Notes under the pieces: model-generated
What the model was told of the DNA's origin: nothing
What the model saw: only the letters and a program-made list of their open reading frames with translations
The model's database searches: none
Position numbers and translations under genes: made by a program
In this document: one piece after another, positions 3,689 to 28,407 of the stretch
Layout: every line of letters begins with the position of its first letter
Numbering within the stretch: the stretch's first letter is position 1
DNA from: Vibrio penaeicida
GTDB lineage: Bacteria; Pseudomonadota; Gammaproteobacteria; Enterobacterales; Vibrionaceae
DNA: 32,000 nt
Assembly: GCF_002933855.1 (NCBI RefSeq)
Contig: NZ_BFAQ01000011.1
Span: 29,442-61,441, forward strand
Reading direction: 5' to 3'

Positions 3689-3691
3689 GTC

Positions 3692-5714: not shown

Positions 5715-6346
5715 TGTCTAGTGCAAAAGATATTAAAAAGAGTGTCTTAGCGCCAGTATTGGATAACAACCCAATCGCGCTTCAGGTACTTGGTGTGTGT
5801 TCTGCACTAGCAGTAACCACCAAACTAGAAACAGCGTTTGTAATGACTCTTGCGGTTATTTTCGTAACAGCACTGTCAAACTTCTTTGTTTCTTTGATCC
5901 GTAACCACATTCCAAACAGTGTTCGTATTATCGTACAGATGGCGATCATTGCTTCTTTGGTAATCGTGGTAGACCAAATCCTAAAAGCTTACTTATACGA
6001 TATCTCTAAGCAGCTATCTGTATTCGTTGGTCTGATCATTACAAACTGTATCGTAATGGGTCGTGCAGAAGCATTTGCTATGAAATCTGCACCTCTACCG
6101 TCTTTAATTGATGGTATTGGTAACGGTCTTGGTTACGGTTTTGTACTGATTACAGTTGGCTTCTTCCGCGAACTATTCGGTAGCGGCAAACTATTTGGTA
6201 TGGAAGTACTTCCGCTGGTAAGTAATGGCGGTTGGTATCAACCAAACGGTCTAATGCTTCTGGCACCATCTGCATTCTTCTTGATCGGTTTCCTAATCTG
6301 GGCGATCCGTGTGTTCAAGCCAGAACAAGTAGAAGCGAAGGAGTAA
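5714..6346 (+). CDS. nqrD: Na+-translocating NADH:quinone reductase subunit D
   Basis: 210 aa, multi-TM, NqrD sequence; TAATG overlap with nqrC. Confidence 0.97.
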
Positions 6347-6353
6347 GGTCGTC

Positions 6354-6950
6354 ATGGAACATTATATTAGTCTGCTAGTTAAATCGATTTTCATCGAAAA
6401 CATGGCACTGTCTTTCTTCTTGGGTATGTGTACATTCCTTGCGGTATCCAAGAAAGTTAAGACTTCTTTTGGCTTAGGTGTCGCTGTTGTCGTAGTACTT
6501 ACTATTGCAGTACCGGTAAACAACTTAGTTTACAACCTTGTGCTTAAAGAGAACGCTCTGGTTGAAGGTGTTGACCTGAGCTTCCTGAACTTCATTACCT
6601 TCATTGGTGTAATTGCAGCATTGGTACAGATTCTAGAGATGGTTTTAGACCGTTTCTTCCCGCCTCTGTACAACGCACTGGGTATTTTCCTTCCGCTGAT
6701 CACAGTTAACTGTGCAATCTTCGGTGGTGTATCTTTCATGGTGCAGCGTGATTACAACTTTGCTGAGTCCGTAGTTTACGGTTTCGGTTCTGGTGTAGGT
6801 TGGATGCTTGCTATCGTTGCGTTAGCAGGTATTCGTGAGAAGATGAAGTACTCAGACGTTCCTCCAGGTTTACGTGGTCTTGGTATCACATTTATCTCTG
6901 TAGGTCTGATGGCACTGGGCTTCATGTCATTCTCTGGTGTTCAACTGTAA
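6354..6950 (+). CDS. nqrE: Na+-translocating NADH:quinone reductase subunit E
   Basis: 198 aa, [37 protein letters not shown]. Confidence 0.97.
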
Positions 6951-6967
6951 GGCATAAGGAATAGTCA

Positions 6968-8191
6968 ATGGACATTATTCTTGGTGTAGTGATGTTTACA
7001 CTGATTGTTCTAGCCCTAGTTTTGGTTATTTTATTTGCCAAATCTAAGCTAGTACCAACAGGTGACATTACCATTTCCGTAAACGGCGATCCTGAAAAAG
7101 CGATCGTTTCTCAACCAGGTAGCAAGCTGCTAAGTTCTCTTGCTGGCGCTGGTGTATTCGTTTCATCTGCTTGTGGTGGCGGTGGCTCTTGTGGTCAGTG
7201 TCGTGTGAAAGTGAAATCTGGTGGTGGCGACATTCTACCAACAGAACTGGATCACATTACTAAAGGTGAAGCCCGTGAAGGTGAGCGTCTGGCTTGTCAG
7301 GTGGCAGTGAAAACTGACATGGACATCGAGCTTCCAGAAGAAATCTTCGGCGTTAAAAAGTGGGAATGTACGGTTATCTCTAACGATAACAAAGCGACAT
7401 TCATCAAAGAACTTAAGATTCAGATTCCTGATGGCGAGTCAGTACCTTTCCGTGCGGGTGGTTACATTCAAATCGAAGCGCCAGTTCACCACGTGAAATA
7501 CGCTGATTACGATATTCCTGACGAATACCGTGAAGACTGGGACAAGTTCAACCTGTTCCGCTATGAGTCTAAAGTTAACGAAGAAACCATTCGTGCTTAC
7601 TCAATGGCTAACTACCCTGAAGAAGAAGGTATTATTATGCTGAACGTGCGTATCGCTACGCCGCCGCCTAATAATCCTGATGTACCACCTGGTATCATGT
7701 CTTCGTACATCTGGTCTCTTAAAGAAGGTGACAAGTGTACGATCTCTGGTCCATTTGGTGAATTCTTCGCGAAAGATACAGATGCTGAAATGGTATTCGT
7801 TGGTGGTGGTGCCGGTATGGCGCCAATGCGTTCGCATATCTTCGATCAGCTTAAGCGTCTGAACTCTAGCCGTAAGATGTCATTCTGGTACGGTGCACGT
7901 TCTAAGCGTGAGATGTTCTACGTAGAAGACTTTGACGGTCTGCAATCTGAAAACGATAACTTCGTTTGGCACTGTGCTCTATCAGATCCAATGCCAGAAG
8001 ATAACTGGGAAGGTTACACAGGCTTCATCCACAACGTATTGTACGAAAACTACCTGAAGGACCATGATGCTCCTGAAGATTGTGAGTACTACATGTGTGG
8101 TCCACCGATGATGAATGCGGCTGTTATCGGCATGCTGAAAGATCTTGGTGTAGAAGACGAAAACATCCTATTGGATGACTTCGGTGGCTAA
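6968..8191 (+). CDS. nqrF: Na+-translocating NADH:quinone reductase subunit F
   Basis: 407 aa; 2Fe-2S motif [10 protein letters not shown] plus FAD/NADH oxidoreductase domain ([12 protein letters not shown]). Confidence 0.97.
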
Positions 8192-8213
8192 ACCCATCTA
8201 AGTAATTGATTTG

Positions 8214-8246
8214 TGGCTGACTCGTATGAGTCAGCCATTTATTTTT
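8214..8246 (+). terminator. Rho-independent terminator after nqrF
   Basis: tggctgactc-gtat-gagtcagcca perfect 10-bp stem followed by tttattttt. Confidence 0.9.
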
Positions 8247-8346
8247 GTAAATCAAGTTGCTATAGAACAGTATCCAGAACAACAAACGCTAAAGTATTGG
8301 GTATTTTTCTCTATCAACTTAAATAATTATAAGCAGGAGTGAGCAA

Positions 8347-9351
8347 GTGAAATACTGGCTTGTTGTCTTAACTTCCTTATTGTTTCTAGCTGGTTGCAGT
8401 CAGCCGAAAGAACAAATCCACTTATCCGGTCCTACTATGGGAACGACTTACAATATTAAATATATTGAGGTCGATGGTGCGCCAGCATCTGCCGATATTC
8501 AGAAAGAAGTCGATAAGTTACTGGAATTAGTGAATGACCAGATGTCGACGTATCGCAAGGATTCAGAGCTTAGTCGTTTTAACCAATACAAAGGTAACGA
8601 AGCATTTAAGGTGTCCGCTGAAACCGCAATCGTAGTGAAAGAAGCGATTCGCCTGAATGAGCTTACTCGTGGTGCATTGGATGTGACTGTTGGTCCTCTC
8701 GTTAATTTATGGGGCTTTGGACCAGAAGCTCGACCGGAAGTGGTGCCAAGTGATGAAGAACTAAGTGCTCGAAAAGCCATGACGGGAATATCATATTTAA
8801 GCGCGACTTCTACTACTCTGACAAAGACGCTGCCAGAGCTGTATGTTGACCTTTCTACCATTGCAAAAGGTTGGGGGGTAGATGTCGTTGCCAATTATGT
8901 TGAGTCGCTAGGCATTCACAATTACATGGTTGAAATTGGTGGTGAGATTCGCGTAAAAGGTGTTAATCAAAGCGAAGAAGCGTGGAGAATCGCCATTGAG
9001 AAACCTTCAACCACAGAGCGTGCGATTCAAGAAATTATTGAACCTGGTGACATGGCGATTGCTACTTCAGGGGATTACCGAAATTATTTTGAAAAGGATG
9101 GTATTCGATACTCGCATATTATCAATCCACAATCAGGAAAGCCGATCGATCATAAAGTGGTATCGGTTACGGTTCTTCACCCTTCTAGTATGACGGCCGA
9201 TGGCTTATCTACTGGTATTATGGTGTTAGGTGAAGACGCTGGTCTGGAAATCGCGAACGAAAATGACCTTGCCGTTATGATCATTGTAAAAACAGAGCAA
9301 GGGTTCGAAGAAATCTATTCAGACGCATTTAAGAAGTATTTAAATAAATAA
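8347..9351 (+). CDS. apbE: FAD:protein FMN transferase (lipoprotein)
   Basis: 334 aa; LFLAGC lipobox; GPTMGTTYNIKY, GxDVVAN and PEPGDMAIATSGDYRNYFEKDG-type ApbE motifs (here IIEPGDMAIATSGDYRNYF); located next to nqr. Confidence 0.95.
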   Translation: MKYWLVVLTSLLFLAGCSQPKEQIHLSGPTMGTTYNIKYIEVDGAPASADIQKEVDKLLELVNDQMSTYRKDSELSRFNQYKGNEAFKVSAETAIVVKEAIRLNELTRGALDVTVGPLVNLWGFGPEARPEVVPSDEELSARKAMTGISYLSATSTTLTKTLPELYVDLSTIAKGWGVDVVANYVESLGIHNYMVEIGGEIRVKGVNQSEEAWRIAIEKPSTTERAIQEIIEPGDMAIATSGDYRNYFEKDGIRYSHIINPQSGKPIDHKVVSVTVLHPSSMTADGLSTGIMVLGEDAGLEIANENDLAVMIIVKTEQGFEEIYSDAFKKYLNK

Positions 9352-9600: not shown

Positions 9601-9641
9601 GCTTTTAGCTTAAGAAGCAGATAAAATCGAAGATGTTAAAA

Positions 9642-9672
9642 GTTCAGCCGTTGCTGAGCTTTTTTATTTTTT
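9642..9672 (+). terminator. Rho-independent terminator after nqrM
   Basis: gttcagc-cgtt-gctgagc stem followed by a T-rich run ttttttatttttt. Confidence 0.8.
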
Positions 9673-9724: not shown

Positions 9725-10099
9725 TTAAATCGATGGGCTGGTTAGCGTAACGGAGTAGCGCCATGGTTTCCCGTTTTCAGTATTGATTTCCATGCTGGCA
9801 TTTTTACCATCGTTTGTACTCAGTGTCAGCGACGGCAGTTCTAATGAAGTTGGTCCACCTCTCTCATTACAAGTAACGTTGCCGGTGAGCTCTACATTAC
9901 CTAATGAATCTGGCGTTATCTTCGCGAGGAATTTGCATTCCCCCGATACCGCTGCTCCCCATTCATTCGCTTCTAGGAAAGCTTCAAAATATTGGCGCTG
10001 ACCTTGTCGTTCTAGCGTAATACATGCCTTGTAGTCAAAATTAGCAGCTGCTGGAAAGCTGGTAGTGACCAACAATAAACACGTCATCCGAATGTTCAT
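9725..10099 (-). CDS. Small secreted/periplasmic protein of unknown function, last gene of the candidate operon
   Basis: 124 aa with an N-terminal signal peptide (MNIRMTCLLLVTTSFPAAA); starts about 10 bp downstream of the AsmA-like gene. Confidence 0.7.
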   Translation of the reverse strand: MNIRMTCLLLVTTSFPAAANFDYKACITLERQGQRQYFEAFLEANEWGAAVSGECKFLAKITPDSLGNVELTGNVTCNERGGPTSLELPSLTLSTNDGKNASMEINTENGKPWRYSVTLTSPSI

Positions 10100-10108
10100 T
10101 CTTCACCT

Positions 10109-13100
10109 TTACTTCTTTATAGGGGTTCCGCGCGAAATCATTTCACACAGGTAGCTTCCATCGCTATCAAGCGGTTTTTCAACTAGCCAGCGAATCGGTG
10201 AAATAACTGGGCTGGTAGTGAATCGCACGGACGTTTCTAAGATCGCAGAAAACGGCACACTTAAGTCAAAGTCTTCAAAATTACCGGAAACTTCAATCGG
10301 TGTTTGAAGGCTAAATATCTGGGCTGATTTGGGTCTTGGCGCGAGATAAAGATCGAACGTTCTATCCGAGTAAGAAGCTGAAAAGTTACCATTTACTTGA
10401 ATACGCGTTGTGTCCAGTAACAAGTCCCGCTGCTGCAAATCACCATTTGTGATATCAAAGCCGCCTGCCACGCAATTTAGAACCGATTCCTGTTCCTTGG
10501 TAAAGCTAGGCAATATTGCATCGGTTAAATTGACGGCCCAAAGGTCGATTAAGTCCGCTTCAAACTCCTGTGGCCAAATAGAAAAACCAATAAACCCGTT
10601 AGCGTTATTCATGAGATTATCAGGAGTGTTGGCCAAACTGGTTAAATTAAAGTAAGTACTGAGATTTCCACCCATATCTGTCTTAGTATCGATACGTCTA
10701 GCGATAATACCGTAGTCAAAATGATGTACTTGCCCTTGAATAGCGATATCGAATTGGTCTTGTCGAGCTTCAATTTGCCCAGCCAAAGAAAAGGAGCCGC
10801 CAGGAATACTGATTTTTAATGGAGAGACACGTAATTTTCCATCCAATAGTGATAGCTTCGCGGATGTTGCGCCTAACCAATCATCACCTGAACGAACATT
10901 ACTTACCTCTATATCCATTTCTACGTTTGCCCATGATAAGCCTTCAGGGCTAACGACAAGTGGTTGTGTTGTGCTTTCTTCTACAGTTGGCTTGCGACTA
11001 GAGGTTTCTCGGTTAGCAGAATTCGGTATCCAAGCTTTCCAGTTGCCCACTTTAAAGTCGTCCATTTGAATCTGCGATGATGACAGGCTTAATACAATGT
11101 CAGGACGCGAATATTTCCCGAGTGGGCGGAATTGCCCAGTACCAATAAGCTCACTCTTACCGATATTGAGGACAAGTTGCTGTAATTGATATTGAACGTC
11201 ATCTAGCGATAACTTGGCCGATAAATCAATTGGACCATAAGGCGGAAGCTTGACCCCTGTGAACTCGTTAAGCCTATTTAAATTAGGAATAGCCGCGTTT
11301 AATTGGAGTTCCAATTGAGTGAAGTCCAGTGGTAGGGCAATGTCCGTTGAGGCTTCAATTTTTATATCACCAAGGGTAAAAAAGACATTAGCAGGTAAGC
11401 TTTCTGAAAGCCTATTGGCTTCTTTCAGAGAAACCGATTGGATGCTCAGTGTTGTTTTTTTATCCTGTACGGAGCCCGTCAGTAGCAGCTCGGTGTTGAG
11501 CTCCGGTCCGGTATGAAAATGCCCTTCCGAGATGTGAATGTCCATCGATTTTCCGGTATAGATATCCGGAACCTTGAGATACCCACCTTCAAGTAAAGCT
11601 TGTACTTGAGTCATCTCCATGAATTCAAGTAACGTTTTTCCTGAAAGTGATAAGCTTACTCGGGCACTATCTAATGCCATTTCCATGTCATCGGCGATGC
11701 CAAAGCTTTTAGCGATAGCAGCAATATTCGGTGAGTCAGCTTTAAGGTTAAGCGTTGAGGATATTTGAGCAGCGTTGATGCTAACAGCAAGATCGCCTGT
11801 CATTAGGTTGTCGGCGAGGCGCATTGAAAACGGCGCAGGTTTCATTATGCCGTTTCGAAGCTTACCCGAGAAGGTGATGTGTTTGAGGCTTTGATTTGAC
11901 CATCGCATATCACCGACATTTAGGTTGATATCCGCATCCACAATAGTAATGTCGTTACTCAAGATAGGAACGGAAAGGTTGACCCCTTGAGTTGGTATGG
12001 CTTGTTCTACTTCTGGTAACGTTTCTTCTTGTGCTAACAAGGCGAGTTGATTGAAATCCAATATAGAAAAATCAGCATCGATATCCACAAATGAGCGTTT
12101 AGGATCGTTTAACCATTTGAGTGCTAATGTCCCTTTGCTGTCCATAACACGAAGGTTTTGAGTGGAAAGTGTCAGCCACTCATTTTGATGTTCTAAGGTC
12201 GCATTGAGCTTTAGAGGTCCGCTAGCCCCTGACTGCGTACCTAACCAAGGTGAAAGTTTTGCGATATTCGGGCTCGATATGTCCAGCTTAAATTGGCTGC
12301 CAACTTGCCAGCGTGTTTCAGGGAGAGAGCCAAACGCGTGAATATTCAGTATTGGGCTGTCTAGTGTGATGGTCGTTTCCCAATCTCGCTTGTTGATGAT
12401 GTCTGACAGTGCCCCCGCTTTAGCTGTGATGGTAGCAGGCACACCTTGGAGGTTACCGCGAATATCGACATCGACTGGCTGGTTCATTCCTGCTTTAAAT
12501 CGCGCTTTCTCAATGGCATAGTTTGCACCTTCTGTCCAAGATATAGCGGCATTATCCAATGCAAAAGCGAGGCGACTGTTGTCTATCCATTCCTTAAGTT
12601 TGGTGCCTTCAGTTTGGACACTCAGTAACGCACTTTCAAGGTGACCATCTGCTTCTTCGATACCCGCCAGCCAATGAGCGAGTTCACCGAGTGGAGAGTC
12701 TTGGGCACCAAGCTCTATATTTAAAGTTGAAGACCATTCGGTTGCGTCAATTGATGCCTTCCCTCGGAAAGGAACTTGAGCGATATCGGCAGAAATGGGC
12801 GCGTTCAATGTTCCTTTCTCGCTTACGACGGCAAGAGATAGGTTTTTTATTTCTGTTCCAAGCCCTAATATTTCTCCTATAGAGACAGAAAGGTTGGTTT
12901 GGGTAGAGACCAGCCATTGATCAAGAGCTTGCTGCAGCGGGGACTTTTGCGGTGGTGCAGACGCATACCCCATCATTTGCTGTTCTGGCTCTGGTTGTAG
13001 CCAAGGCTTAAGATCGATCACAGGAATCGTGAGTTTGCCATCAATGGTGTTGACGTCACCAAGTGCAATGTCCAGATACCCTTCTGCTTGTGTGATAGGG

Positions 13101-14101
13101 CTATCCACGTTAAGCGACTTAATGTGCAGTGCGCCCTGTTTTGCCGATATGTCAGCGGAGATACTAAGTGGAGCTATATGATAGACATCGAGCCCCAGTA
13201 AGGCTTCAATAGGCTGTGTGTCGAGCCAGTCTAATTGGATGTTTGCCGTTGAAAGCGCTTTCCCGTTTGGTTGAATATTGGAATTGAATTCCAGAGAAGC
13301 GCCTGCGAAATGACCTTTGACGTCAAGAGAGCCTGTTTGGGCATTGAGGAGCTTTTCTATTTCTCCCGTGACACTCAGGTTGTATTCTTGACCTAATGCT
13401 GCCCCTTTGGTGTTGAGATGCCAAATTTTATCATCTTTGGTTAAATCAAATTCATCCAGAAACCAATCCACATAAGTTTGGGTATTCTGATCTTCGTAAA
13501 TCACACTTAAGCTTTTGGCTACGGCTTTCTCACCGAGTTTGACCGTCCAATGCGCTAGCTTGCTGTCTGAATTTAAGGGGCTATCTGAATTTAAACTGCT
13601 CTCTGAATTGTCGCTGCTTTCTGGTGCCACTCTGGTTACTTGGGGAGCAACAGATTCCGCCTGCTTTCCAATTGCCCAGTTTTCATTGCCATCCATATCT
13701 TTTGCTAGATAGAGATGGATCCCTTCCAAATCAATGTAATCAATGAATAGTGTGTTTTCGAATAAGGGGAATATCGCCACTTTTGCCGAAGCGTGCCCCA
13801 CACGCAGCAGCGGTTGCCACTCTATTGAAGGAATATTCGCGACTTCAATATTATTAATTTCCAACTCAGGCCTAAACGATACATGAAATCGGATATCGCC
13901 ATCAATTTTGACAGGTCGATTGATCTGGTTTTCGAGAATGCTGGATATTTTTGGCTTATGCGCCGTTAGGTTTATGTTGAACCCTACGGTAAGCGCGATA
14001 GCCAGTATTGCAATGAATGAAAGAAGGGTTATACCCAAATATTTCAAGGTTTGAAGCAGAACAAATGGCATTTTAGTTTTGGTGGCTGTTGGCGTATTCA
14101 T
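10109..14101 (-). CDS. AsmA-family protein (large, 1330 aa)
   Basis: Single N-terminal TM (TLLSFIAILAIALTVGF), AsmA N-terminal motif (RPVKIDGDIRFHVSFRPELEINNIEVANIPSIE) and typical C-terminal AsmA region (GDLQQRDLLLDTTRIQVNGNFSASYSDRTFDLYLAPRPKS). Confidence 0.88.
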   Translation of the reverse strand: MNTPTATKTKMPFVLLQTLKYLGITLLSFIAILAIALTVGFNINLTAHKPKISSILENQINRPVKIDGDIRFHVSFRPELEINNIEVANIPSIEWQPLLRVGHASAKVAIFPLFENTLFIDYIDLEGIHLYLAKDMDGNENWAIGKQAESVAPQVTRVAPESSDNSESSLNSDSPLNSDSKLAHWTVKLGEKAVAKSLSVIYEDQNTQTYVDWFLDEFDLTKDDKIWHLNTKGAALGQEYNLSVTGEIEKLLNAQTGSLDVKGHFAGASLEFNSNIQPNGKALSTANIQLDWLDTQPIEALLGLDVYHIAPLSISADISAKQGALHIKSLNVDSPITQAEGYLDIALGDVNTIDGKLTIPVIDLKPWLQPEPEQQMMGYASAPPQKSPLQQALDQWLVSTQTNLSVSIGEILGLGTEIKNLSLAVVSEKGTLNAPISADIAQVPFRGKASIDATEWSSTLNIELGAQDSPLGELAHWLAGIEEADGHLESALLSVQTEGTKLKEWIDNSRLAFALDNAAISWTEGANYAIEKARFKAGMNQPVDVDIRGNLQGVPATITAKAGALSDIINKRDWETTITLDSPILNIHAFGSLPETRWQVGSQFKLDISSPNIAKLSPWLGTQSGASGPLKLNATLEHQNEWLTLSTQNLRVMDSKGTLALKWLNDPKRSFVDIDADFSILDFNQLALLAQEETLPEVEQAIPTQGVNLSVPILSNDITIVDADINLNVGDMRWSNQSLKHITFSGKLRNGIMKPAPFSMRLADNLMTGDLAVSINAAQISSTLNLKADSPNIAAIAKSFGIADDMEMALDSARVSLSLSGKTLLEFMEMTQVQALLEGGYLKVPDIYTGKSMDIHISEGHFHTGPELNTELLLTGSVQDKKTTLSIQSVSLKEANRLSESLPANVFFTLGDIKIEASTDIALPLDFTQLELQLNAAIPNLNRLNEFTGVKLPPYGPIDLSAKLSLDDVQYQLQQLVLNIGKSELIGTGQFRPLGKYSRPDIVLSLSSSQIQMDDFKVGNWKAWIPNSANRETSSRKPTVEESTTQPLVVSPEGLSWANVEMDIEVSNVRSGDDWLGATSAKLSLLDGKLRVSPLKISIPGGSFSLAGQIEARQDQFDIAIQGQVHHFDYGIIARRIDTKTDMGGNLSTYFNLTSLANTPDNLMNNANGFIGFSIWPQEFEADLIDLWAVNLTDAILPSFTKEQESVLNCVAGGFDITNGDLQQRDLLLDTTRIQVNGNFSASYSDRTFDLYLAPRPKSAQIFSLQTPIEVSGNFEDFDLSVPFSAILETSVRFTTSPVISPIRWLVEKPLDSDGSYLCEMISRGTPIKK
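13564..13617. repeat. Three imperfect in-frame 18-bp tandem units inside the AsmA-like gene
   Basis: ctgtctgaatttaagggg / ctatctgaatttaaactg / ctctctgaattgtcgctg; encodes NSESSLNSDSPLNSDSK. Confidence 0.7.
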
Positions 14102-14205: not shown

Positions 14206-14850
14206 CTAGTGCCGAGTACTTCGTTTTATGTAGATGCTTACGCGACGATTGGCTTTTCTTTGAGCTGCGAGTTCCACTGTATCTGATATTGTTGGGTAGG
14301 TATCTGCGTACGCGACAGCACTCAGTTTTGTCTTGTCGATAGACAAGGAAATCAGCTGTTTTGTTACGCCTATTGCTCTTGCACCGGAAAGCTCCCAGTT
14401 GCTATCGAAATGGTCGTTATGAATAGGTAAGTCATCTGTATGACCTTCGACGACAATTTCCTTTCCCTCCAAACTTGTACGTTCTATAGACGACGCAAAA
14501 ATTGTCAACAGCCGAACGCCTTCATTGCTTAACTTTGCGGAACCTTCTTCGTAAAGTGCTTCTGTGTCGAAATCCACTTTAATTCCATCAGGCATTTTCG
14601 TTAAGGAGATAGGCTCATGCTCAGTCGATTGCTTTAGGGCTTGAATGAGCAGGGTCATTGGCATCTCGGCTTTTCGATCCGATAGCGCGTTCCAACTGGC
14701 TTTCAGCTCTTCAAACTTTCCTTGGTCGATTTGAGAAGTGGCGAGAATAACGATGAAGAAAGTCATCAAAAGTGTAATGAAATCACTGTACGTTACTAGC
14801 CAGTCATTTTCTTCTCGGACATCGGCACCACTCTGTCTTCTGCGCGGCAT
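14206..14850 (-). CDS. MotB-like stator protein with OmpA/MotB peptidoglycan-binding domain
   Basis: 214 aa; TM with conserved ion-binding Asp context NDWLVTYSDFITLLMTFF (D23), and EGHTDDLPI...SNWELSGARA...NRRVSIYI OmpA-C/MotB motif. Confidence 0.93.
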   Translation of the reverse strand: MPRRRQSGADVREENDWLVTYSDFITLLMTFFIVILATSQIDQGKFEELKASWNALSDRKAEMPMTLLIQALKQSTEHEPISLTKMPDGIKVDFDTEALYEEGSAKLSNEGVRLLTIFASSIERTSLEGKEIVVEGHTDDLPIHNDHFDSNWELSGARAIGVTKQLISLSIDKTKLSAVAYADTYPTISDTVELAAQRKANRRVSIYIKRSTRH

Positions 14851-14852
14851 AA

Positions 14853-15632
14853 TTAGGACTCCAGCCTTTTCTTGGGAGAGAGATAGCTGTTCATCGAGTC
14901 TTTGATGTGCATATCAGGTTGCTTTTCCGTCATCATCACAAAGGCTTGGATCTGCATATCTCGATGGCGAAAATTGTCGTCAGATTTACGCCTAACATTG
15001 ATCGCAGAAGGCTTGAACAAAGCCTGAGCAAGTAGAGTGCCGTATAACGTTGTAAGTAGGGCAATCGCCAGCCCTTTCCCCATGGTAGCCATGTCACCAT
15101 CTAAGCTATCCAGCATAACAATCAACCCAACCAGTGTGCCTATCATGCCAAATGCAGGAGAGAAATTTGCCATAGTACTCAACACATTGGCGGGTTGTGC
15201 TTCTTGCACTCGCTGGCTTTCGTTACTTTCATCAAGCAAATTACGAAGTGCCTTCCCTTTGTAGCCTGTGCCCAGTAACTCTATGGCCATTGCAATGAAA
15301 GGGTCTTTTAACTCTTTATTTGTTAAGGTTTTTTCCAAGCCAGTAATTCCTTCGGTGCGATACACCTTGTTCCATTCTAATGAGCGAATGATAGAAGAGT
15401 GCTTCAGTTTGGTTTCATTCCTACCATCAAATAAGCTTGCAATAACCGCTTGAATGGCTTTAAAGAAAAGAGGGTAAGAGTAGCTAATTAGGGCTGCAGT
15501 TGACGTTCCTCCTGCAACAATCAGAAAGCTGGATAAGCTAACAAATAGCCAATAATTATCGGTGCTTGAAACCACAGCGGTAGTCAAGACAGCGGCAGAA
15601 AACAGCCATCCCGTAATGGTACTCAAAGACAT
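14853..15632 (-). CDS. MotA/PomA-like stator protein
   Basis: 259 aa; PAFGMIGTLVGLIVMLDSL...MGKGLAIALLTTLYGTLLAQALFKP is the TM3-TM4 signature of MotA/PomA; upstream TM pair and cytoplasmic loop present. Confidence 0.93.
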   Translation of the reverse strand: MSLSTITGWLFSAAVLTTAVVSSTDNYWLFVSLSSFLIVAGGTSTAALISYSYPLFFKAIQAVIASLFDGRNETKLKHSSIIRSLEWNKVYRTEGITGLEKTLTNKELKDPFIAMAIELLGTGYKGKALRNLLDESNESQRVQEAQPANVLSTMANFSPAFGMIGTLVGLIVMLDSLDGDMATMGKGLAIALLTTLYGTLLAQALFKPSAINVRRKSDDNFRHRDMQIQAFVMMTEKQPDMHIKDSMNSYLSPKKRLES

Positions 15633-17467
15633 TAGGCTAGTTCCTCCAGCTCACTCATTTTAAACTTATTTTCTTCTAACGCTTGACGCATGACCCTAAC
15701 AATATCTTGCTTGGCAGCGTTTCTATCGTTTTCGTTGACGTCCGTTGCCATCTCTAATTCACTGATTACCATATTGACGTAGCGGTTTGGACAGCCTGAA
15801 ATCAGCGCTTTTACGCGTTCCACTGGCATATCTGAAAAGGCGTTAGCAAGTGTTTGAGCATCAAGATTTCGGATATGATTGCTAATGATTTGTGTCGGTG
15901 TTCGCCAAATGTCATCAAAGCTATAAAAACGTTGTTTTAGCTGCACATAAGCACCCGGAGACGTTTCTTTTAACTGGGTTAATAGGTCGTTTTGTTTGGT
16001 GATACTTAACCCATCGAGGATTTGAGTCAAAACGAAAGGACCATCAGTAGGTAGCGTTCTAAAGTCTGGAACGGTTTGAGCTTTCGTCGCCAACGAAGAA
16101 GCAACATCATTAAAGGTTGCCATAGGAAGAGTGTCTAACCGAGCAATTTCCATCGCCAATTCAGCCTGACGTTCCATTGGGTATAGAGAAAGCAGCGCTG
16201 CAGAATTCTCTGAAGAAAGTTGGCTAATCACCATAGCCTGTATACGCTCAGGCTCGTGCTCCAACAGCCAGCGGATTTGGTTGATGGACAGGGTCTCAAG
16301 AAAATCAAATGGTTGTGACTTTCGGGTTGAGTGTGCGTGAGGGTTTGAGTCGACAAGGAGCTGCTTGAATGCAGAAACGTGCTTTACGACTTGCTCGCGA
16401 TCATTTGGGTTTTGCTCCAAATAGCTTACATAGCTAGGTATCTGAGAAGTCAGGCTAGGGTACATAGTGGTGAACATCGCTCTCCCAAGCTCTTGATATA
16501 CGCAAGCAAACATAGGCAGATTTTGTTCGTTTAGGCTGAGTTTTCTGATGGTCTGATCGACTTGATGAGGCTCGCCTAAGCTGAATTTGACTAATTCTTG
16601 GCGACACGCCTCGTGTTCATAATACTGATGGGAAACTAAGGGCTCGGCTTGCAATGAGGAAGCAGGCTGAACATCGTTTACAGTATCGTTGTTTGGTCCT
16701 GCAGAGCGTGCGCGAAGCAGCATGACGATAAGAGTAATTATCACCAAGCCAAGCGCAATGAGCGTTAGCCAAAAGTAATCTAGCCAAAATACTTTCTCCT
16801 GAATTTGAGTGCTGTCTTTGTTGGGAACCTCAAATACGGTGCGGATGATGTCCAGCGAATCGCCTCTAAGTGGGTTGTAATCCACTTTTTGAATCAGAAG
16901 TTTTTTTAGGAGCTGTACGTTTTCGCTGCTCACCTTTTCGTCCAGCAATAGTGTTACGGACAACTTGTTGATTTCAGTAGAGAGAGGTTTGGCTTCCCTT
17001 TGGTTTTTGCTGATGTTAGCCGTTGGGTTGGGTGCCGGCGTATTTTGCTGGGGGGGAGGCGCTGGCTGAGCCATGGTCTGAACTGGAATCTCAATGTTCT
17101 CTTTGGCGGGCATGCCGCTTAATCCAGGCAGTTTAGGGACGAATTCAGCTACTCTTCGAACAGGTGCTGCAATGGTTGTCGTTCTTTGAGGGGCTCCAGT
17201 TTGATCGGCTTTAGTTTCGGGTGTTTTGGCTGCAGATGCATTAGCTACAGGTACGTTGATTCCCGAATTCTCCTTTTGTACGAACTCCGATTGAATGGTC
17301 AAGACATGCTTGTTGGGTCCTATGATACGTTCAATATCGTCATTTATGCGCGCTTCTAATCTCGCAGAGAATTCAAGCGCTTGGATCTCACTGGATGATT
17401 GCGCAAGGCTAAAGCTAGATATACAAAAAGGCAGAATAAAGGCAAGTTTAACTAATGGGTTCATCAT
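15632..17467 (-). CDS. FliF C-terminal-like / FliG-like fusion membrane protein
   Basis: About 611-616 aa (ORF track start 17482; the 17467 ATG gives a TAATG overlap with the upstream gene). Signal peptide; FliF ring-domain-like halves LEARINDDIERIIGPNKHVLTIQSEF and INKLSVTLLLD...LLIQKVDYNPLRGDSLDIIRTVFE; TM WLTLIALGLVIITLIVMLL; FliG-middle-like WLLEHEPERIQAMVISQLSSENSAALLSLYPMERQAELAMEIARLD; FliG-C-like FYSFDDIWRTPTQIISNHIRNLDAQTLANAFSDMPVERVKALISGCPNRYVNMVISELEMATDVNENDRNAAKQDIVRVMRQALEE. Confidence 0.82.
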   Translation of the reverse strand: MMNPLVKLAFILPFCISSFSLAQSSSEIQALEFSARLEARINDDIERIIGPNKHVLTIQSEFVQKENSGINVPVANASAAKTPETKADQTGAPQRTTTIAAPVRRVAEFVPKLPGLSGMPAKENIEIPVQTMAQPAPPPQQNTPAPNPTANISKNQREAKPLSTEINKLSVTLLLDEKVSSENVQLLKKLLIQKVDYNPLRGDSLDIIRTVFEVPNKDSTQIQEKVFWLDYFWLTLIALGLVIITLIVMLLRARSAGPNNDTVNDVQPASSLQAEPLVSHQYYEHEACRQELVKFSLGEPHQVDQTIRKLSLNEQNLPMFACVYQELGRAMFTTMYPSLTSQIPSYVSYLEQNPNDREQVVKHVSAFKQLLVDSNPHAHSTRKSQPFDFLETLSINQIRWLLEHEPERIQAMVISQLSSENSAALLSLYPMERQAELAMEIARLDTLPMATFNDVASSLATKAQTVPDFRTLPTDGPFVLTQILDGLSITKQNDLLTQLKETSPGAYVQLKQRFYSFDDIWRTPTQIISNHIRNLDAQTLANAFSDMPVERVKALISGCPNRYVNMVISELEMATDVNENDRNAAKQDIVRVMRQALEENKFKMSELEELA

Positions 17468-18054
17468 TATTTTTCCAGCCATTTCATCATTCGTTTTACT
17501 TCAGGGAGCTCAGGGTTGTGCTTCAACGCTTGTTGCCAAGCAATGATGGCATCTTCTACTTTGCCCAGTTTGTAAAGAACACTCCCCTTTGTCGCAAGAA
17601 TGTTTTCTGGCGTTTCTGTTAGTGGTTGAGCTTGTTCAAGTAGAGTCAGTGCGGCATTAAAATCGCCTTTCACTGCATTTTCTTGAGCTTCTAATTTGAG
17701 TGCGAGTGACCTCGCTTCATTGAATGGAGATACAGGTTCCTCCCCATTTTCTTCTTGAGAAGGTGCGGCATCTTCAGTTTGTGGGGCAGTTTCCTCAGGA
17801 AGAGGAAATGCTGACTCTTCCTGAGACACGGTTGTGTAAGTGGGCTCAGCACTGTCTGTCTCGATGGTTAACACCATATCCGGATCAGACAAATCAAATT
17901 GCACACCTGATTCATACTGGTTGCCCTGCATGTGTATGGTTATTTTTCCATCTTTCATTGCAACTCGTTGTCGAGTTTCTGATTGAGATGCTGATTCAGC
18001 CCAAGCTGGATTTGTCAGCAAAAATAGACAAGCACAAAGGATCGTATTCTTCAT
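17467..18054 (-). CDS. Secreted/periplasmic TPR-repeat protein
   Basis: 195 aa; signal peptide MKNTILCACLFLLTNPAWA; C-terminal TPR (ALTLLEQAQPLTETPENILATKGSVLYKLGKVEDAIIAWQQALKHNPELPEV). Confidence 0.8.
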   Translation of the reverse strand: MKNTILCACLFLLTNPAWAESASQSETRQRVAMKDGKITIHMQGNQYESGVQFDLSDPDMVLTIETDSAEPTYTTVSQEESAFPLPEETAPQTEDAAPSQEENGEEPVSPFNEARSLALKLEAQENAVKGDFNAALTLLEQAQPLTETPENILATKGSVLYKLGKVEDAIIAWQQALKHNPELPEVKRMMKWLEK

Positions 18055-18057
18055 GGA

Positions 18058-19083
18058 TTAAAACCTCACGCCTAACGTTAGATCGAACGCAGGGTTGCCG
18101 CCCCATGTGCCGTTTTCAAAGGTGTCTTTGCTGATGTACATCAAACCGAGATCGACAAAAATATCCCCTTGAGTAAAGAAGGCATTTCGTGGTGGTGACA
18201 ATTCTAGCCCTGCACGTACGGCGATTTTTTGTTTGTTCTCAACAAACTGAAAGCCCGAACCCGCGTAAACAGATAACCAGTCATCGGTAATCGCATACAG
18301 TGCTCTAGCTTCTGCTCCAAAGCCTTGAATCGAAAAATTTGTACTGCCGTCAAAGTTGCGAAAATAGTTGCCGATAAAGGCAAAGTGAGCGCGTTCTGAT
18401 GGGGTGTGCCCGCTGTAGTAGCGTATAGAAAGGTCCGTTACATTTTGTATGTCTTCGCCATCAGTTGAGGTACCATTGATACCAATGTAACCAAGAGCGA
18501 CTCCGACTCCGCTCTCCTTTACATTCTTCTTTGCGAGCACATCCGGATCCTCCTTTATGTCGAAGTTTCCCGTCCATACCACTTCGTTATTTTGAGTGCT
18601 AACTAGTGACATAGTGATGTTGTGAGTATTGTCGCTAAGAGGCGAACGCCAGGTTAGGAAGGCGTCGACACGTATTTTCTTTCCGAGCTTACGCAGTTCA
18701 TCATTACTTGAAAGCCCATGCTTAAACTTTACGTTGGAGGCAGAGAGGTTGACTTGTGTTTTTCCACATTCGATACAGCTGCGTACTTTGATCCCATTGT
18801 TTTTCATTTTGGCAGTTAGGATCGATGTCAGCTTGAGCAGCTCGGTTTTTTCTTCATCCGTTACGGCTTTACCCTCGAAATACAAGGCGACACTTTGGAT
18901 CTTAGCTAAAGACTTGTTGTCTAAAATGTCGAACCAAAGATCATCGTGTTCTAAGAATTCTTCAACTGTTTGTGCTTCATTATCTTTTGCGGAGAAAAGT
19001 GCATTTAAAGGTTTGGAAAAAACAATCGAAGAGTAAGAAATTAAAAGGGTGCTAATGGTTAGAGTCGTGACTTTTTTCCACAT
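18058..19083 (-). CDS. Outer-membrane protein with N-terminal CsgG/FlgO/TolB-N-like domain and C-terminal beta-barrel-like region
   Basis: 341 aa; signal peptide; SVALYFEGKAVTDEEKTELLKLTSILTAKMKNNGIKVRS...LGKKIRVDAFLTWRSPLSDNTHNITMSLVSTQNNEVVWTGNF; C-terminal alternating beta-strand region ending in aromatic LTLGVRF. Confidence 0.65.
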   Translation of the reverse strand: MWKKVTTLTISTLLISYSSIVFSKPLNALFSAKDNEAQTVEEFLEHDDLWFDILDNKSLAKIQSVALYFEGKAVTDEEKTELLKLTSILTAKMKNNGIKVRSCIECGKTQVNLSASNVKFKHGLSSNDELRKLGKKIRVDAFLTWRSPLSDNTHNITMSLVSTQNNEVVWTGNFDIKEDPDVLAKKNVKESGVGVALGYIGINGTSTDGEDIQNVTDLSIRYYSGHTPSERAHFAFIGNYFRNFDGSTNFSIQGFGAEARALYAITDDWLSVYAGSGFQFVENKQKIAVRAGLELSPPRNAFFTQGDIFVDLGLMYISKDTFENGTWGGNPAFDLTLGVRF

Positions 19084-19096
19084 AATGAAACTCCAT

Positions 19097-19140
19097 TCAG
19101 ATCGAGGCTAGGGAAAAGACCTCGAACTGATAGGCTAGGG
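19097..19140. promoter_or_regulatory. Inverted repeat plus direct repeat in the 5' leader of the candidate operon
   Basis: tcagatcgagg (19097-19107) / cctcgaactga (19120-19130), 10/11 complementary; direct repeat aggctaggg at 19105-19113 and 19132-19140. Confidence 0.5.
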
Positions 19141-19347
19141 GACTCACTCTATTTGAATCGCCTTGCACACATGATCCCGAGGGCTGGGTATGAAGAGTAT
19201 TTTGTTAACCCTTTGGATTTCTTGCAATAAACCATTGATCTGATGATTAAACGCATGGCGTGCTTTGTTTAGATAGGGGTATGTAGCTTGAAGTGATTTT
19301 CCGCCGTTTTGAGTGATCTTTGTATATGTAGAAATGGTAGGTGTAGA

Positions 19348-20571
19348 TTAGCGAGCAACGAGGCGGTTTCGACCTTCTTCTTTTGCTTGATACAACAGAT
19401 CGTCAGCATCCCGAATAATTTCTTCTAGGTTTTGCTCTTCATTGCCAGAGCTAACACCAATACTCACTGTGAGATGAATTTGTAAATCTTCGTATTGAAC
19501 AGCCGTTTTCTCTATTCGTTGGCGCATCTTGTCTAGGCGACTTTGGAATTCTTGATAATCCCCACAGTGTTGAATACAGAACTCTTCACCACCAAATCTC
19601 ACCGCAATTTCATTTTTGAAGTAGATGGATATAATTTGCGCCACAGTAACCAGTGCTCTGTCGCCGCCATCATGACCATAGGTATCATTCACTTTCTTAA
19701 AGAAGTCGATATCAATCATGGCGATATTGCGATTGTCACAACATTTATTGTTGTTCTCACCGAACAAGTAGCGACGATTCCAAAGACCAGTTAACGCATC
19801 TTGGTTAGCGATGCGATAAAGCTCGTCGGTGGCGTCTTTCATATCCAGAATGTGTTGAACTCGACAATAGAATTCTTCTTGGTTGAAAGGCTTATAAAGG
19901 AAATCGTTAGCACCAGCTTTTAGAAATCGCGCCGTCATCGTGCGGTCGTTATTGCCAGACAGGCCCAGAATAGCCAAATGATTTCGATCATACTGATTTC
20001 TAATTTCTCTGGTCATAGTAATGCCGTCTTTATTCGGCATGTCATGATCGGTAATTATCATAGTGATGTCTGGGTTTTCCGCTAAAATATCAATAGCTTG
20101 CTGCCCATCATTTGCTTGCAAGGTATCAATGTACTGATGCTCAAGGAGATACACTACATGGTTTCTAACGGTAATTGAGTCATCGACAACCAATGCTTTG
20201 TGTGTATGGTTCGCCATCAATCGCTTTAGAAGTGGGATCAAATAGGATACAGAAGCGCTACTGTCTTTGGTGATGTAATCGAGTACACCTTTAGCAATAA
20301 CATGTTCACGGACGTTTTCATTAAACTGAGCGGTGAGAACAATCGCACGAACTTTATGCGATAAAACGAGATCGATAATTTCCCCGTCTGGACCGTCGGG
20401 TAAGCAATAATCCAATACAGCGCATAGAAAGTTAGTATCTTGTCTTATTATGTTATTTGCCGCTTCTAACGACTCCGCTAAGACAACTTCAAAACCAATT
20501 TGCTTAAGCTGCGAGTTAAGGTAATTACGAAAGGCTCGACTATCCTCGACAACCAAAATCCGATTTAGCAC
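19348..20571 (-). CDS. Two-receiver-domain GGDEF response regulator (putative diguanylate cyclase)
   Basis: 407 aa; two REC domains (ILVVEDS...VLDYCLPDG; ALVVDDS...IITDHDMPNKDG) and GGDEF domain with RFGGEEF. Confidence 0.93.
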   Translation of the reverse strand: MLNRILVVEDSRAFRNYLNSQLKQIGFEVVLAESLEAANNIIRQDTNFLCAVLDYCLPDGPDGEIIDLVLSHKVRAIVLTAQFNENVREHVIAKGVLDYITKDSSASVSYLIPLLKRLMANHTHKALVVDDSITVRNHVVYLLEHQYIDTLQANDGQQAIDILAENPDITMIITDHDMPNKDGITMTREIRNQYDRNHLAILGLSGNNDRTMTARFLKAGANDFLYKPFNQEEFYCRVQHILDMKDATDELYRIANQDALTGLWNRRYLFGENNNKCCDNRNIAMIDIDFFKKVNDTYGHDGGDRALVTVAQIISIYFKNEIAVRFGGEEFCIQHCGDYQEFQSRLDKMRQRIEKTAVQYEDLQIHLTVSIGVSSGNEEQNLEEIIRDADDLLYQAKEEGRNRLVAR

Positions 20572-24556: not shown

Positions 24557-25309
24557 GTGACTATGTATATCAAATGGATAGGGTTAGCACTGCTAACAAT
24601 AAGTACTTACTCTCATGCTTCGCAATGTAAGGTCGATGTCGAAAATGAAGTCCATTTAGATGGAAATCGAGTAGAGGTTTACCAGAAAGGGGAAGCAAAG
24701 GTTCTAATAGATAAAGACAATAATGTCTTTATTAATGGTGAGAAGTTAGCGCTCGATGAATGGCAGCATCAGGCTGTAGACTCGTACCGTGAAAAAATGA
24801 ACGAATATGTGCCAAGAGCCAAAGACATTGCTAATAACGGCGCTGATCTCGCAAAGGACATTGTTGATGATGTCAGCGCCAGTTTTAACGACAGTCAAGC
24901 GTTCAATAATGTGAAATCTGCCATCGATGATTTTTACACTGATCTCGAATCTCGCTACTACCAAGACGGGGAATTTGTTCTTAAGGAAAATGCGTTTGGT
25001 GATGCCTTCAGTAATTGGAAGAATGACTTTGATGGTGCGATGGAAAAGTTTAATGGGGAGTTTTTCTCCAGCGCGTTTTCTGCTTTGTCTGAAAAAATGA
25101 AGACGGAAGGCGGTATTAATTTTACTGAATTGCAAAAGCAGTTGGGTTCACTAAAAGATACGCTGAAAGAAAAGATTGAAGGGCAGTCGGAGGAGATTCG
25201 CAAAGAAGCTCAGCAATACTGTGAACAGCTAAAAGATGTGGCGGGTGAAGAACAAAAACTGCATGAGAAAATACCAGCTCTAAAAGACTACCCAGTATTC
25301 TTAATCTAA
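24557..25309 (+). CDS. DUF2884 / YggN-like secreted protein
   Basis: 250 aa; signal peptide; ASQCKVDVENEVHLDGNRVEVYQKGEAKVLIDKDNNVFINGEKLALDEWQ resembles the YggN family. Confidence 0.75.
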   Translation: MTMYIKWIGLALLTISTYSHASQCKVDVENEVHLDGNRVEVYQKGEAKVLIDKDNNVFINGEKLALDEWQHQAVDSYREKMNEYVPRAKDIANNGADLAKDIVDDVSASFNDSQAFNNVKSAIDDFYTDLESRYYQDGEFVLKENAFGDAFSNWKNDFDGAMEKFNGEFFSSAFSALSEKMKTEGGINFTELQKQLGSLKDTLKEKIEGQSEEIRKEAQQYCEQLKDVAGEEQKLHEKIPALKDYPVFLI

Positions 25310-27940: not shown

Positions 27941-28407
27941 TTCTTCTCCCGTCTTAAAAAGTATGGGGATATACGACTGCCCCCAGAACTTGCTCAAGCA
28001 GCCTAATATGACGGCTTACGTCATTTCTGAAAGGTTGCTTGGGTATAAAGTGCTTAATTTATAAACGCACAAAGTCTCTATTTATTAGACGGAGAGTTAA
28101 ACAATGTCATTGTTAGGATATTGAATTAATTGCAAAACTAGATTGAATATCACAGAGAAATATTCTGAGGTTCTTGAGTTTCAGTATGTTTTCGAGGCAC
28201 TTCACCTTAATTTGTTCGGAAAATTTCATGTGTATTTTTGATTCGTCGCCTGAAGGAGAATACTTTTCGACGCAATTCTATATTTTTAGACCAATTGTTT
28301 GTAATTTGTGCGTTCGAATGGGTATTACTGCTGCATGCTCTTGTTATTGCCTGTGTAAAACACTATTGTACTAGCCAACTAGTTCGCAAGTGTGTCAGTA
28401 GCGTAGT

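Follow-up and report, generated by a model that had tools for sequence, protein, structure and literature searches.

The closest described counterpart of the system reported here is the torque-generating core of the bacterial flagellar motor, namely FliF, FliG and the stator subunits MotA and MotB (MotAB, or PomAB). A FliF protein is recognized by a first transmembrane (TM) helix, three ring-building motifs, called RBM1, RBM2 and RBM3, with a β-collar, a second transmembrane helix (TM2) and a FliG-binding peptide. Its RBM1 and RBM2 surround the type III export gate, and canonical FliG is a soluble protein of ~330 amino acids (aa). As for the stator, flagellar motility is characterized in a classification of 2025 by three hallmarks: torque-generating interface, plug-linker and OmpA-like domain (PMC12505986). 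We analyzed a stretch of 32,000 nt of Vibrio penaeicida DNA (NZ_BFAQ01000011.1, positions 29,442 to 61,441; hereafter the window) and found that the conserved unit at 14206–19083 consists of five genes, which code for a protein that we call X, a tetratricopeptide repeat (TPR) protein, a protein modeled as a FliF–FliG fusion, MotA and MotB. With the flagellar core this module shares homologous RBM3, FliG N-, M- and C-domains, MotA, and a MotB with plug and OmpA-like domain, along with the main MotA–FliG charge pairs, both MotA prolines and a loop at the position of the rod-gripping loops of FliF. It departs from that core in combining FliF and FliG in one polypeptide that lacks RBM1 and RBM2 and has a disordered loop for the collar; in lacking an export apparatus, a rod, a hook and a filament as well as FliM/FliN and the EHPQR motif; in a MotB that is ~90–100 residues shorter; in its partners, the TPR protein and a predicted outer-membrane barrel; and in being dispensable for the swimming of Vibrio fischeri in soft agar.

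Fusions of FliF to FliG have been described in two other settings. In the Chlamydiaceae, which have no flagellum, a shortened FliF is naturally fused to FliG sequence in a protein of ~330 aa, with RBM2, one further RBM and only a region resembling the FliG middle domain; the chlamydial flagellar genes listed are FliF, FliL and FlhA only, and the fusion was suggested to interact with parts of the injectisome (PMC4768692). Judged by that published description, the module fusion is distinguished by its RBM3-like motif, its complete FliG including the torque domain and its linked stator. We know of no MotAB that accompanies the chlamydial fusion. Engineered FliF–FliG fusions of Salmonella and Vibrio alginolyticus (8z4d/8z4g) assemble into rings according to passages of the two source papers (PMC11481574; PMC6079021); unlike the module protein, these are laboratory constructs that retain full-length FliF and sit within a complete flagellum. 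Outside the flagellum, the module resembles ExbBD–TonB, TolQR–TolA, AglRQS–Glt, GldLM with the type IX secretion system, and ZorAB in being an inner-membrane ion motor that would energize the outer envelope in a non-flagellar setting. It differs from these 5:2 motors in that its stator is of the flagellar type and not of their 'generic' type (PMC12505986), and in having FliG as the driven partner, which none of ExbBD, TolQR, AglRQS, GldLM and ZorAB uses.

The five genes lie head-to-tail on the minus strand. The first is X (18058–19083; 341 aa, with a signal-like N-terminus and no family match), followed by the TPR protein (17467–18054; 195 aa, with a Sec signal peptide and TPR matches in Pfam), the FliF(RBM3)–FliG fusion (15632–17482; 616 aa), the MotA/PomA-type stator A subunit (14853–15632; 259 aa) and the MotB/PomB-type stator B subunit (14206–14850; 214 aa). 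X and the TPR gene are separated by 3 nt; the TPR and fusion genes overlap by 16 nt or by ATGA, depending on the choice of the fusion start; TAATG at 15632 is common to the fusion stop and the MotA start; and MotA and MotB are spaced by 2 nt (14851–14852). The 616-aa protein is 100% identical to a V. penaeicida entry in NCBI, where it is labeled 'FliG C-terminal domain-containing protein' and starts at the ATG at 17467, giving 611 aa.

An earlier note on this DNA had proposed a minimal non-flagellar rotary motor of three minus-strand genes at 14206–17482, namely MotB-like, MotA-like and FliF/FliG-like genes. These open reading frames (ORFs) and their domain matches, the latter well above chance level, are as it described, and so are the TAATG junction, the 2-bp MotA–MotB gap and the motifs it quoted (TYSDFITLLMTFF with Asp23, PAFGMIGTL and ALLTTLYG). 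Its delimitation of the unit was too narrow, as the conserved unit extends to the TPR protein and X. The note had also remarked on the lack of rod, hook, filament and export genes alongside; indeed, a Pfam scan of the 21 window ORFs of at least 120 aa found no flagellar family beyond the MotB, MotA and fusion genes, the 7 further ORFs of that size outside the scan being alternative frames nested within those same three genes. Neither fliM nor fliN was found in the scanned window ORFs or beside the module in the other loci examined.

The 616-aa fusion contains FliG_M (1.2e-13) and FliG_C (8.9e-14) domains by Pfam, and YscJ_FliF_C scores 23.0 bits, below the cut-off of 23.8. When it is compared with PDB sequences, FliG chains match at ~1e-12, with the 8z4d chain among the best. 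An AlphaFold2 (AF2) model built with 37 family members (predicted local distance difference test, pLDDT, 79.9) lays it out as an N-terminal signal-like helix, a periplasmic ring-building motif, a single TM helix (237–260) and a cytoplasmic part (280–616). The ring-building motif takes the form alpha-beta / beta-alpha-beta across residues 30–70 and 168–215 and is split by a disordered Pro/Gln-rich loop (71–167) that holds a conserved LPGL motif, with an RGD motif lying between the loop and the TM helix. The cytoplasmic part is all-helical in the model, with FliG N-, M- and C-like domains. Foldseek matched this part to full-length FliG (3hjl) with E 7e-8 over 349 columns and the periplasmic part to RBM3/S-ring structures of FliF with E 2e-3 to 9e-3 (probability 1.0). 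A pairwise BLASTP alignment places residues 36–245 against residues 232–455 of E. coli FliF, spanning RBM3, the collar and TM2 (E 3e-6), with LPG-LSG pairing with VPGALSN of FliF, INKLSVTLLLD with VQRLSVAVVVN, and RGDSLDII with RGDSLNVV. The modeling and alignments thus identify the 616-aa protein as a natural fusion, a single-pass inner-membrane protein with one FliF RBM3-type motif and a complete FliG, whose N, M and C domains are armadillo-like.

The fusion nevertheless falls outside the definitions of both of its parents. Among the FliF features listed above it retains only the RBM3-like motif and TM2: RBM1 and RBM2 are absent from the AF2 model and the Foldseek matches, and the disordered loop replaces the β-collar. 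As a FliG it scores 55.4 bits with TIGR00207 against a cut-off of 226.7, and it is membrane-anchored and 616 aa long as opposed to the soluble canonical form. On the torque helix, the equivalent of E. coli FliG Arg281 is R/K in 29 of the 37 family members, and that of Asp289 is E/D in 23. The FliM-binding EHPQR motif is degraded, in keeping with the lack of fliM and fliN: of the 37 members 35 retain Glu125, whereas His126 and Pro127 are variable, Gln128 is mostly replaced by Arg/Lys, and Arg160 is Glu in 28. In a crude neighbor-joining (NJ) tree built from the M and C domains of FliG, 6 recognizable canonical FliGs (that of E. coli and five others) fall opposite all the long fusions, and six proteins of 310–362 aa and unclear status group among the fusions; this single split constitutes weak evidence for a single origin of the fusion.

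The A subunit of the stator matches MotA_ExbB in Pfam (1.3e-19) and aligns over its full length with few gaps to Clostridium MotA (6ysf/8ucs; 5e-28), and likewise over its full length to Vibrio PomA (8brd; 5e-23), as well as to Bacillus MotA structures. It displays the four TM helices, the length of ~250–300 aa and the expanded cytoplasmic torque-generating interface between TM2 and TM3 that typify such subunits, and its length and pattern of inserts are those of PomA (TGI4-like), unlike E. coli MotA. Among eight aligned module MotAs (E. coli numbering), Arg90 and Glu98 are each present in 7/8 and Pro173 and Pro222 in 8/8. The principal charge pairs between MotA and FliG of E. coli are reportedly Arg90–Asp289 and Glu98–Arg281, a result attributed to Zhou, Lloyd and Blair in 1998. 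That these positions are retained on both the MotA and the fusion side provides the best evidence from sequence for an action of this MotA on this FliG. The PomA-type threonines Thr158, Thr185 and Thr186 also occur in 8/8 module MotAs; being found in H+-type MotA of Firmicutes too, they do not decide between Na+ and H+.

The B subunit has MotB_plug (3.9e-17; 62 bits) and OmpA (8.3e-13; 48.9 bits) domains in Pfam and aligns in two segments to solved MotB chains. Its channel residue Asp23 lies in the TM helix; next come the plug and an unusually short linker, and then the OmpA-like domain, which shows the signature usual for peptidoglycan binding. Module MotBs are 213–244 aa long, whereas E. coli MotB has 308 aa and the PomB chain 315 aa. 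All NCBIfam equivalog scores of the module stator are far under their cut-offs, the best matches being PomA for the A subunit (128 bits vs 341; E 3e-37) and MotD for the B subunit (147.5 bits vs 283). These comparisons assign MotA and MotB to the flagellar-type (PomAB-like) stator subunits of the 5:2 class.

An NJ tree, in which TolQ and ExbB fall as an outgroup, clusters the module-linked MotAs of the Vibrionaceae and several metagenomic loci, with the linked MotAs of L020–L022 branching apart. By sequence, then, the module stator lies within the PomA-like flagellar-type radiation and forms no cleanly separate clade. An affiliation with ExbBD/TolQR was rejected: TolQ matches the A subunit with E 0.008 (16 bits) compared with 3e-37 for PomA, and both the plug and the OmpA domain are present. 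Zorya was rejected as well, given that the MotA-like protein has no PADLOC match, that the similarity to ZorB is of a generic kind only (E 2e-19) and that the search detected no ZorC, ZorD or ZorE. Two stand-alone MotAB pairs outside the module (L014, 10001–14083; L015, 10001–11556) match the module hidden Markov models (HMMs) as well as some linked pairs do; one is in a Rickettsiales metagenome-assembled genome (MAG), with an 856-aa protein on its 3′ side, and the other in Thiomicrorhabdus.

The remaining two proteins are of a different kind. The TPR protein has repeats in residues ~130–190 (Pfam TPR_2 6.9e-8, TPR_11 6.1e-7, TPR_1 1.5e-6) and a signal peptide that was read from its sequence; in several other lineages it appears to be a lipoprotein, as suggested by lipoboxes such as LMGC and LSAC in the orthologues of L011 and L013. 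X returned no match in Pfam and NCBIfam searches. A conserved C-x-E-C motif marks its N-terminal periplasmic domain. At the C-terminus 10/10 orthologues have a β-signal-like D-[FL]-[TS]-[ILV]-G-x-[RNKS]-F, and the C-terminal region of X is predicted to be an outer-membrane β-barrel. Two weak profile matches of X, of its C-terminus to the FadL barrel (E 0.4) and of residues 63–173 to LpoB (E 0.6; hhalign probability 37%), are non-significant and were not relied on, and a single-sequence AF2 model of X was unusable (pLDDT 34.6). Around the flagellar motor, the T-ring of MotX/MotY and the H-ring of FlgO/FlgP/FlgT are outer-membrane-associated proteins that assemble about it. Sec-exported proteins with TPR or Sel1-type repeats contact MotB in flagellar stator scaffolds (PMC13023049). 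The scaffolds MotX/MotY, FlgO/FlgP/FlgT and MotC/MotK/MotE are thus parallels of the TPR protein and X, with no sequence homology detected between them; searches of the two module proteins against Pfam, NCBIfam and PDB found no homology beyond generic TPR matches.

We then examined how far this gene set is conserved by running HMMs derived from close module members against six-frame ORFs of all fetched loci, and by merging loci that share at least 85% identity in the fusion protein, which left 25 distinct loci. MotA(/B) adjoins the fusion gene in 19 of the 22 non-redundant loci with enough flanking DNA, down to ~20% identity of the fusion; the TPR gene does so in every locus with flanking DNA on that side, and X in 19/25. 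Three gene orders occur (FG, fusion; A and B, MotA and MotB): X-TPR-FG-A-B in most loci, FG-TPR-X-A-B in L020 and L035, and A-B-X-TPR-FG in L023. The five genes are contiguous in V. penaeicida, Vibrio nigripulchritudo, Aliivibrio fischeri, a Tara Oceans contig, many metagenomic contigs and gammaproteobacterial MAGs, and so travel together across very distant lineages. The earlier note had looked to a stator standing apart from the ordinary flagellar pairs and to its recurrent linkage with the FliG-like gene: the linkage is borne out by the 19 of 22 informative loci and their three gene orders, and the stator itself proved to sit inside the flagellar-type PomA-like branch. An all-against-all BLAST of the flanking ORFs uncovered no further conserved neighbor, only synteny within lineages.

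The family to which the fusion belongs is large. An exhaustive search with the fusion recovered 1595 representatives at E<1e-3, of which 234 lay below 1e-10 and 35 below 1e-30; a word-indexed homologue search gave 14 matches with the single protein and with a 37-sequence profile alike. We inspected the architecture of 158 proteins (150 listed plus 8 close relatives), of which 135 had that of the fusion (>480 aa with a TM segment at 150–420), and 125 of these 135 carry LPG[LIVMFA] ~100 residues before the TM segment. The fusion family thus amounts to at least 135 clusters at 50% identity. The hosts that have a name comprise four Vibrio species, two Aliivibrio species, a Saccharospirillaceae MAG and further gammaproteobacterial MAGs, with most members coming from marine and other metagenomes. 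A contig scan with the single fusion protein matched only V. penaeicida and V. nigripulchritudo, the metagenome scan having used a 12-sequence fusion alignment as the query, and a tblastn search of the fusion against plasmids found no match. Between two V. penaeicida strains the ratio of nonsynonymous to synonymous substitution (dN/dS) is 0.05–0.39 over the five module genes; all five are under purifying selection.

Several loci showed variations or surroundings of their own. The metagenomic locus L035 (7338–14403) has FliFG-TPR-X-MotA-MotB followed by MotB′-MotA′ in inverted order, and thus two stator pairs with one rotor gene. In the gammaproteobacterial MAG locus L023 (5191–19415), a 490-aa Sel1/SPOR protein precedes MotA-MotB-X-TPR-FliFG, and an exopolysaccharide export locus lies on the 3′ side, with a BBP2_2 barrel, a Wza-like (Poly_export/SLBB) and a Wzc-like (Wzz/GNVR/AAA_31) protein, and Wzy_C. 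In L013 (7303–12971), X-TPR-FliFG is followed by a TraF_2/PorP_SprF-like barrel and two large proteins in place of MotAB. The distant members L021 (1–7501) and L022 (1–5187) have a common divergent upstream operon coding for proteins of ~600 aa, of ~510–525 aa and several of 100–150 aa, together with proteins of ~1045 and 393 aa on the 3′ side of MotB. The ~600-aa protein shows weak matches to DUF87/TraG-like ATPases in L021, and its L022 counterpart has no Pfam match; these surroundings may represent a larger system or a mobile element.

A part of the module has been encountered before in Vibrio fischeri. Brennan et al. 2013, in the passages available to us (PMC3948606), describe motA2B2 as paralogues of the flagellar stator and as a stator pair standing on its own, 'unique among sequenced Vibrio', report normal soft-agar motility of motA2 and motB2 insertion mutants and no activation of the pair by the flagellar master regulator FlrA, and contrast this with the total loss of motility upon disruption of motA1B1 (pomAB). 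The four published motA2/motB2 primers map in the module MotA/MotB of the A. fischeri locus (L003) with 1–3 mismatches, where none would be expected by chance, which makes V. fischeri motA2B2 orthologous to the MotA and MotB of the window; V. fischeri MotA2 is 58% identical to the window MotA. The pair has the locus tags VF_A0186 and VF_A0187, and by gene order VF_A0185, VF_A0184 and VF_A0183 are presumably the fusion, TPR and X genes. In passages of a second paper, motA2/motB2 are down-regulated in a V. fischeri biofilm model based on RscS overexpression (PMC10804989). The passages of these two papers do not discuss the adjacent fusion, TPR and X genes, nor do those of PMC3948606 discuss a wide distribution of the module. 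Our literature search for the locus tags of the neighbors found no other paper among open-access articles and bioRxiv preprints, and within the same sources we found no published description of the five-gene module, an absence that is no proof. What was already known, therefore, is the flagellar core, the MotA2B2 pair of V. fischeri (uninterpreted), the chlamydial fusion and the laboratory fusions.

The V. fischeri results make the module independent of swimming in one species and one assay (soft agar). The suggestion in the earlier note that these genes do something other than serve the canonical flagellum is upheld by the swimming of the motA2B2 mutants, by the lack of FlrA activation and by the lack of RBM1/RBM2 and EHPQR in the fusion. 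The module lacks several of the features that define genuine FliF, FliG and flagellar stators, namely scores above the family cut-offs, RBM1/RBM2, EHPQR and the requirement for swimming, and keeps those that torque generation requires.

On balance, we consider that the five genes probably specify a self-contained, envelope-spanning, ion-driven machine derived from the flagellar torque-generating core, with an output other than swimming. More specifically, it is quite conceivable, if somewhat short of probable, that this machine is an autonomous rotary engine in which MotAB spins a ring of the fusion and torque passes through the TPR protein and X to the cell surface. By oligomerizing via RBM3 and FliG, the fusion would form a combined S-ring/C-ring-like rotor, one with neither export gate nor rod nor FliM/FliN switch. 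We infer such assembly from the rings formed by relatives of RBM3 and FliG and by the engineered FliF–FliG fusions. Peptidoglycan-anchored MotA5B2 units would then use the flux of Na+ or H+ to push the C-domain of FliG and turn the ring; as the ring has no switch, its rotation would be unidirectional. In the flagellum, collar loops of FliF reach out and take hold of the rod so that torque is transmitted, and those of Vibrio FliF are bound by the Sec-exported repeat protein FlrP (PMC13626733). By analogy, the disordered periplasmic loop of the fusion, which occupies the position of the rod-gripping loops, and its LPGL motif might be held by the Sec-exported TPR protein, which would link the rotor with X in the outer membrane. 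The TPR protein and X might instead form a periplasmic stator scaffold like MotX/MotY, MotC/MotK or the T- and H-rings. The output of the machine might be the movement of, or work on, a component of the outer membrane or cell surface. An autonomous rotary engine of this kind would have arisen from the flagellar motor by reduction, or else would survive as a relative of a pre-flagellar rotor–stator core.

Other readings of the module have to be weighed against this rotary engine. One is that it transduces force without rotation in the manner of Ton and Tol, with the fusion as an adaptor that is pulled or wound by a single MotA5B2 and passes force through its Pro-rich periplasmic segment and the TPR protein to X, for instance in transport or the upkeep of the envelope. 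The outer-membrane-barrel-like protein and the periplasmic TPR protein would suit such a device, as would the ~100-residue disordered Pro/Gln-rich periplasmic segment of the fusion, adaptors of this sort being, as is generally known, what all other known non-flagellar 5:2 motors use; an AsmA-like envelope protein is also encoded on the 3′ side of the module in V. penaeicida with no intervening terminator. We regard this reading as unlikely: the periplasmic domain is of the RBM3 type, whose known relatives all form large rings (PMC4768692), and the Pro-rich segment is an insert within the ring-building fold, not a linker to a C-terminal head domain. Furthermore, the stator is flagellar-type and has kept its FliG-contacting charges, unlike ExbB/TolQ, and the AsmA-like neighbor is not conserved. 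Somewhat less likely still is a sensor or regulator, in which the stator–rotor pair would report ion-motive force, load or the state of the envelope, or would gate biofilm or exopolysaccharide formation, any mechanical output being of no consequence. This idea draws on neighbors and expression, i.e., a diguanylate cyclase (REC-REC-GGDEF) directly upstream in V. penaeicida and V. nigripulchritudo, two-component systems upstream in A. fischeri, the Wza/Wzc/Wzy-type polysaccharide export genes of L023 and the down-regulation of motA2/motB2 in the biofilm model noted above. None of those neighbors is conserved across lineages, however, and Pfam and NCBIfam searches recognized no signaling domain (PilZ, GGDEF, kinase or HTH) in the module, whose barrel, peptidoglycan anchor and ring-building motif would be costly to keep for a pure sensor.

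Two further readings would return the module to the flagellum. It might supply a condition-specific alternative stator and rotor for the polar flagellum, comparable to MotCD of Pseudomonas or the dual stators of Shewanella, given that MotA and MotB are of flagellar type and nearest to the PomA/MotP/MotD models, that the named hosts are, as generally known, flagellated vibrios, and that the V. fischeri assay, as far as the passages of PMC3948606 describe it, covered soft-agar motility only. We find this improbable, since the membrane-anchored FliG of the module could not replace FliF, with RBM1/RBM2 missing and no place for the export gate, nor could it bind FliM, with EHPQR lost. Additionally, motA2B2 is outside FlrA regulation and its mutants have no motility defect, again by those passages (PMC3948606), X and the TPR protein are dedicated partners, and the genomic locations are unrelated to flagellar loci. 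That the module is a decaying remnant of a second (lateral) flagellar system would account for its being made up solely of flagellar-motor pieces without a reported phenotype, yet neither Pfam nor NCBIfam places X or the TPR protein in a flagellar family. With all ORFs intact and tightly coupled, dN/dS in the range given above, catalytic and interface residues kept, and the same five genes persisting at ~20% protein identity and through permuted orders, decay is the hardest of these readings to credit and, in our estimation, very improbable.

Certain observations weigh against the machine that we favor. Three fusion-like loci (L013, L041 and L043) have no MotAB within 3–8 kb, and the stand-alone pairs of L014 and L015 are in the NJ tree as similar to the module MotA as some linked pairs, so that the stator clade is not cleanly module-specific. 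On the contact surface itself, FliG Lys264 and Arg297 are not conserved and Asp288 is weakly conserved in the 37 family members, and with only 214 aa it is uncertain whether MotB would reach the peptidoglycan. Profile searches do not settle the folds of X and the TPR protein, or their partners. The coupling from the loop through the TPR protein to X is drawn entirely by analogy with flagellar systems, and the ring, its rotation and any phenotype of the module are likewise predictions.

Turning to the surroundings of the module in V. penaeicida, its promoter probably lies in the 264-nt intergenic region upstream of X (19084–19347, minus strand), as no other gap in the cluster is sizeable; a scan of this region found neither a sigma-70 nor a sigma-54 consensus site. 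Beyond it lies the gene for the REC-REC-GGDEF (PleD-like) response-regulator diguanylate cyclase (19348–20571, minus strand; two Response_reg domains, 1.9e-35; GGDEF, 9.7e-34), whose GGEEF motif is intact. Within NCBIfam the cyclase most resembles CbrR, a regulator of bile resistance (243 bits vs a cut-off of 600), and its synteny with the module is confined to V. penaeicida and V. nigripulchritudo, the gene being absent beside the module in the other loci. On the opposite side, the 1330-aa AsmA-like protein (10109–14101, minus strand; AsmA 2.5e-37) starts 104 nt 3′ of MotB with no terminator-like site in between, and is a lineage-specific neighbor, possibly co-transcribed with the module in V. 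penaeicida. A conserved AsmA partner of the module was rejected, as the proteins encoded 3′ of MotB in different loci (1330, 787, 856 and 1045 aa) are not one family by BLASTP. Next comes a 124-aa secreted protein (9725–10099, minus strand), taken from the ORF list and syntenic in L001 and L002, whose gene may be co-transcribed with the module in V. penaeicida only. A terminator-like hairpin at 9638–9663, with an 11-bp stem between A- and T-runs, likely ends the minus-strand transcription unit in this species. Like the cyclase gene, the AsmA-like and 124-aa genes stand beside the module only in V. penaeicida and V. nigripulchritudo.

In both of these species apbE and dinB enclose the whole minus-strand block, whose outermost genes are those of the GGDEF protein and the 124-aa protein, and the block looks like an insertion into a conserved Vibrio neighborhood. 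Adjoining the cluster is a complete nqrABCDEF-apbE operon for the Na+-pumping NADH:quinone oxidoreductase (2336–9351, plus strand). Besides this operon and dinB, the other genes of the window code for a RecQ-like helicase, an 866-aa protein (25397–27997, minus strand) that combines a GH18 (chitinase-like) domain with four Ig-like domains of the Big_7 family, an SNF-family symporter, DUF proteins, among them a DUF2884 protein at 24557–25309, and a proS fragment.

Flagellar-type stators and FliG are now held to be specific to flagellar rotation, and a widespread module that combines the two but has no flagellum would upset this view. If the proposed machine is real, it would add a sixth context for ion-driven motors of the 5:2 class, and it would offer a very small, genetically tractable rotor–stator pair, with one rotor gene and no switch, suited to the study of torque generation, stator recruitment and ring assembly. 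The module is present in a model organism, V. fischeri ES114, as motA2B2 and the three genes upstream of it. It would also bear on the origin of the flagellum, in particular on whether a FliF–FliG–MotAB core can exist and be useful alone, a point for which stepwise-evolution scenarios have long had to account; should the module prove to be a pre-flagellar relative, the torque core would have been functional without type III export or an axial filament.

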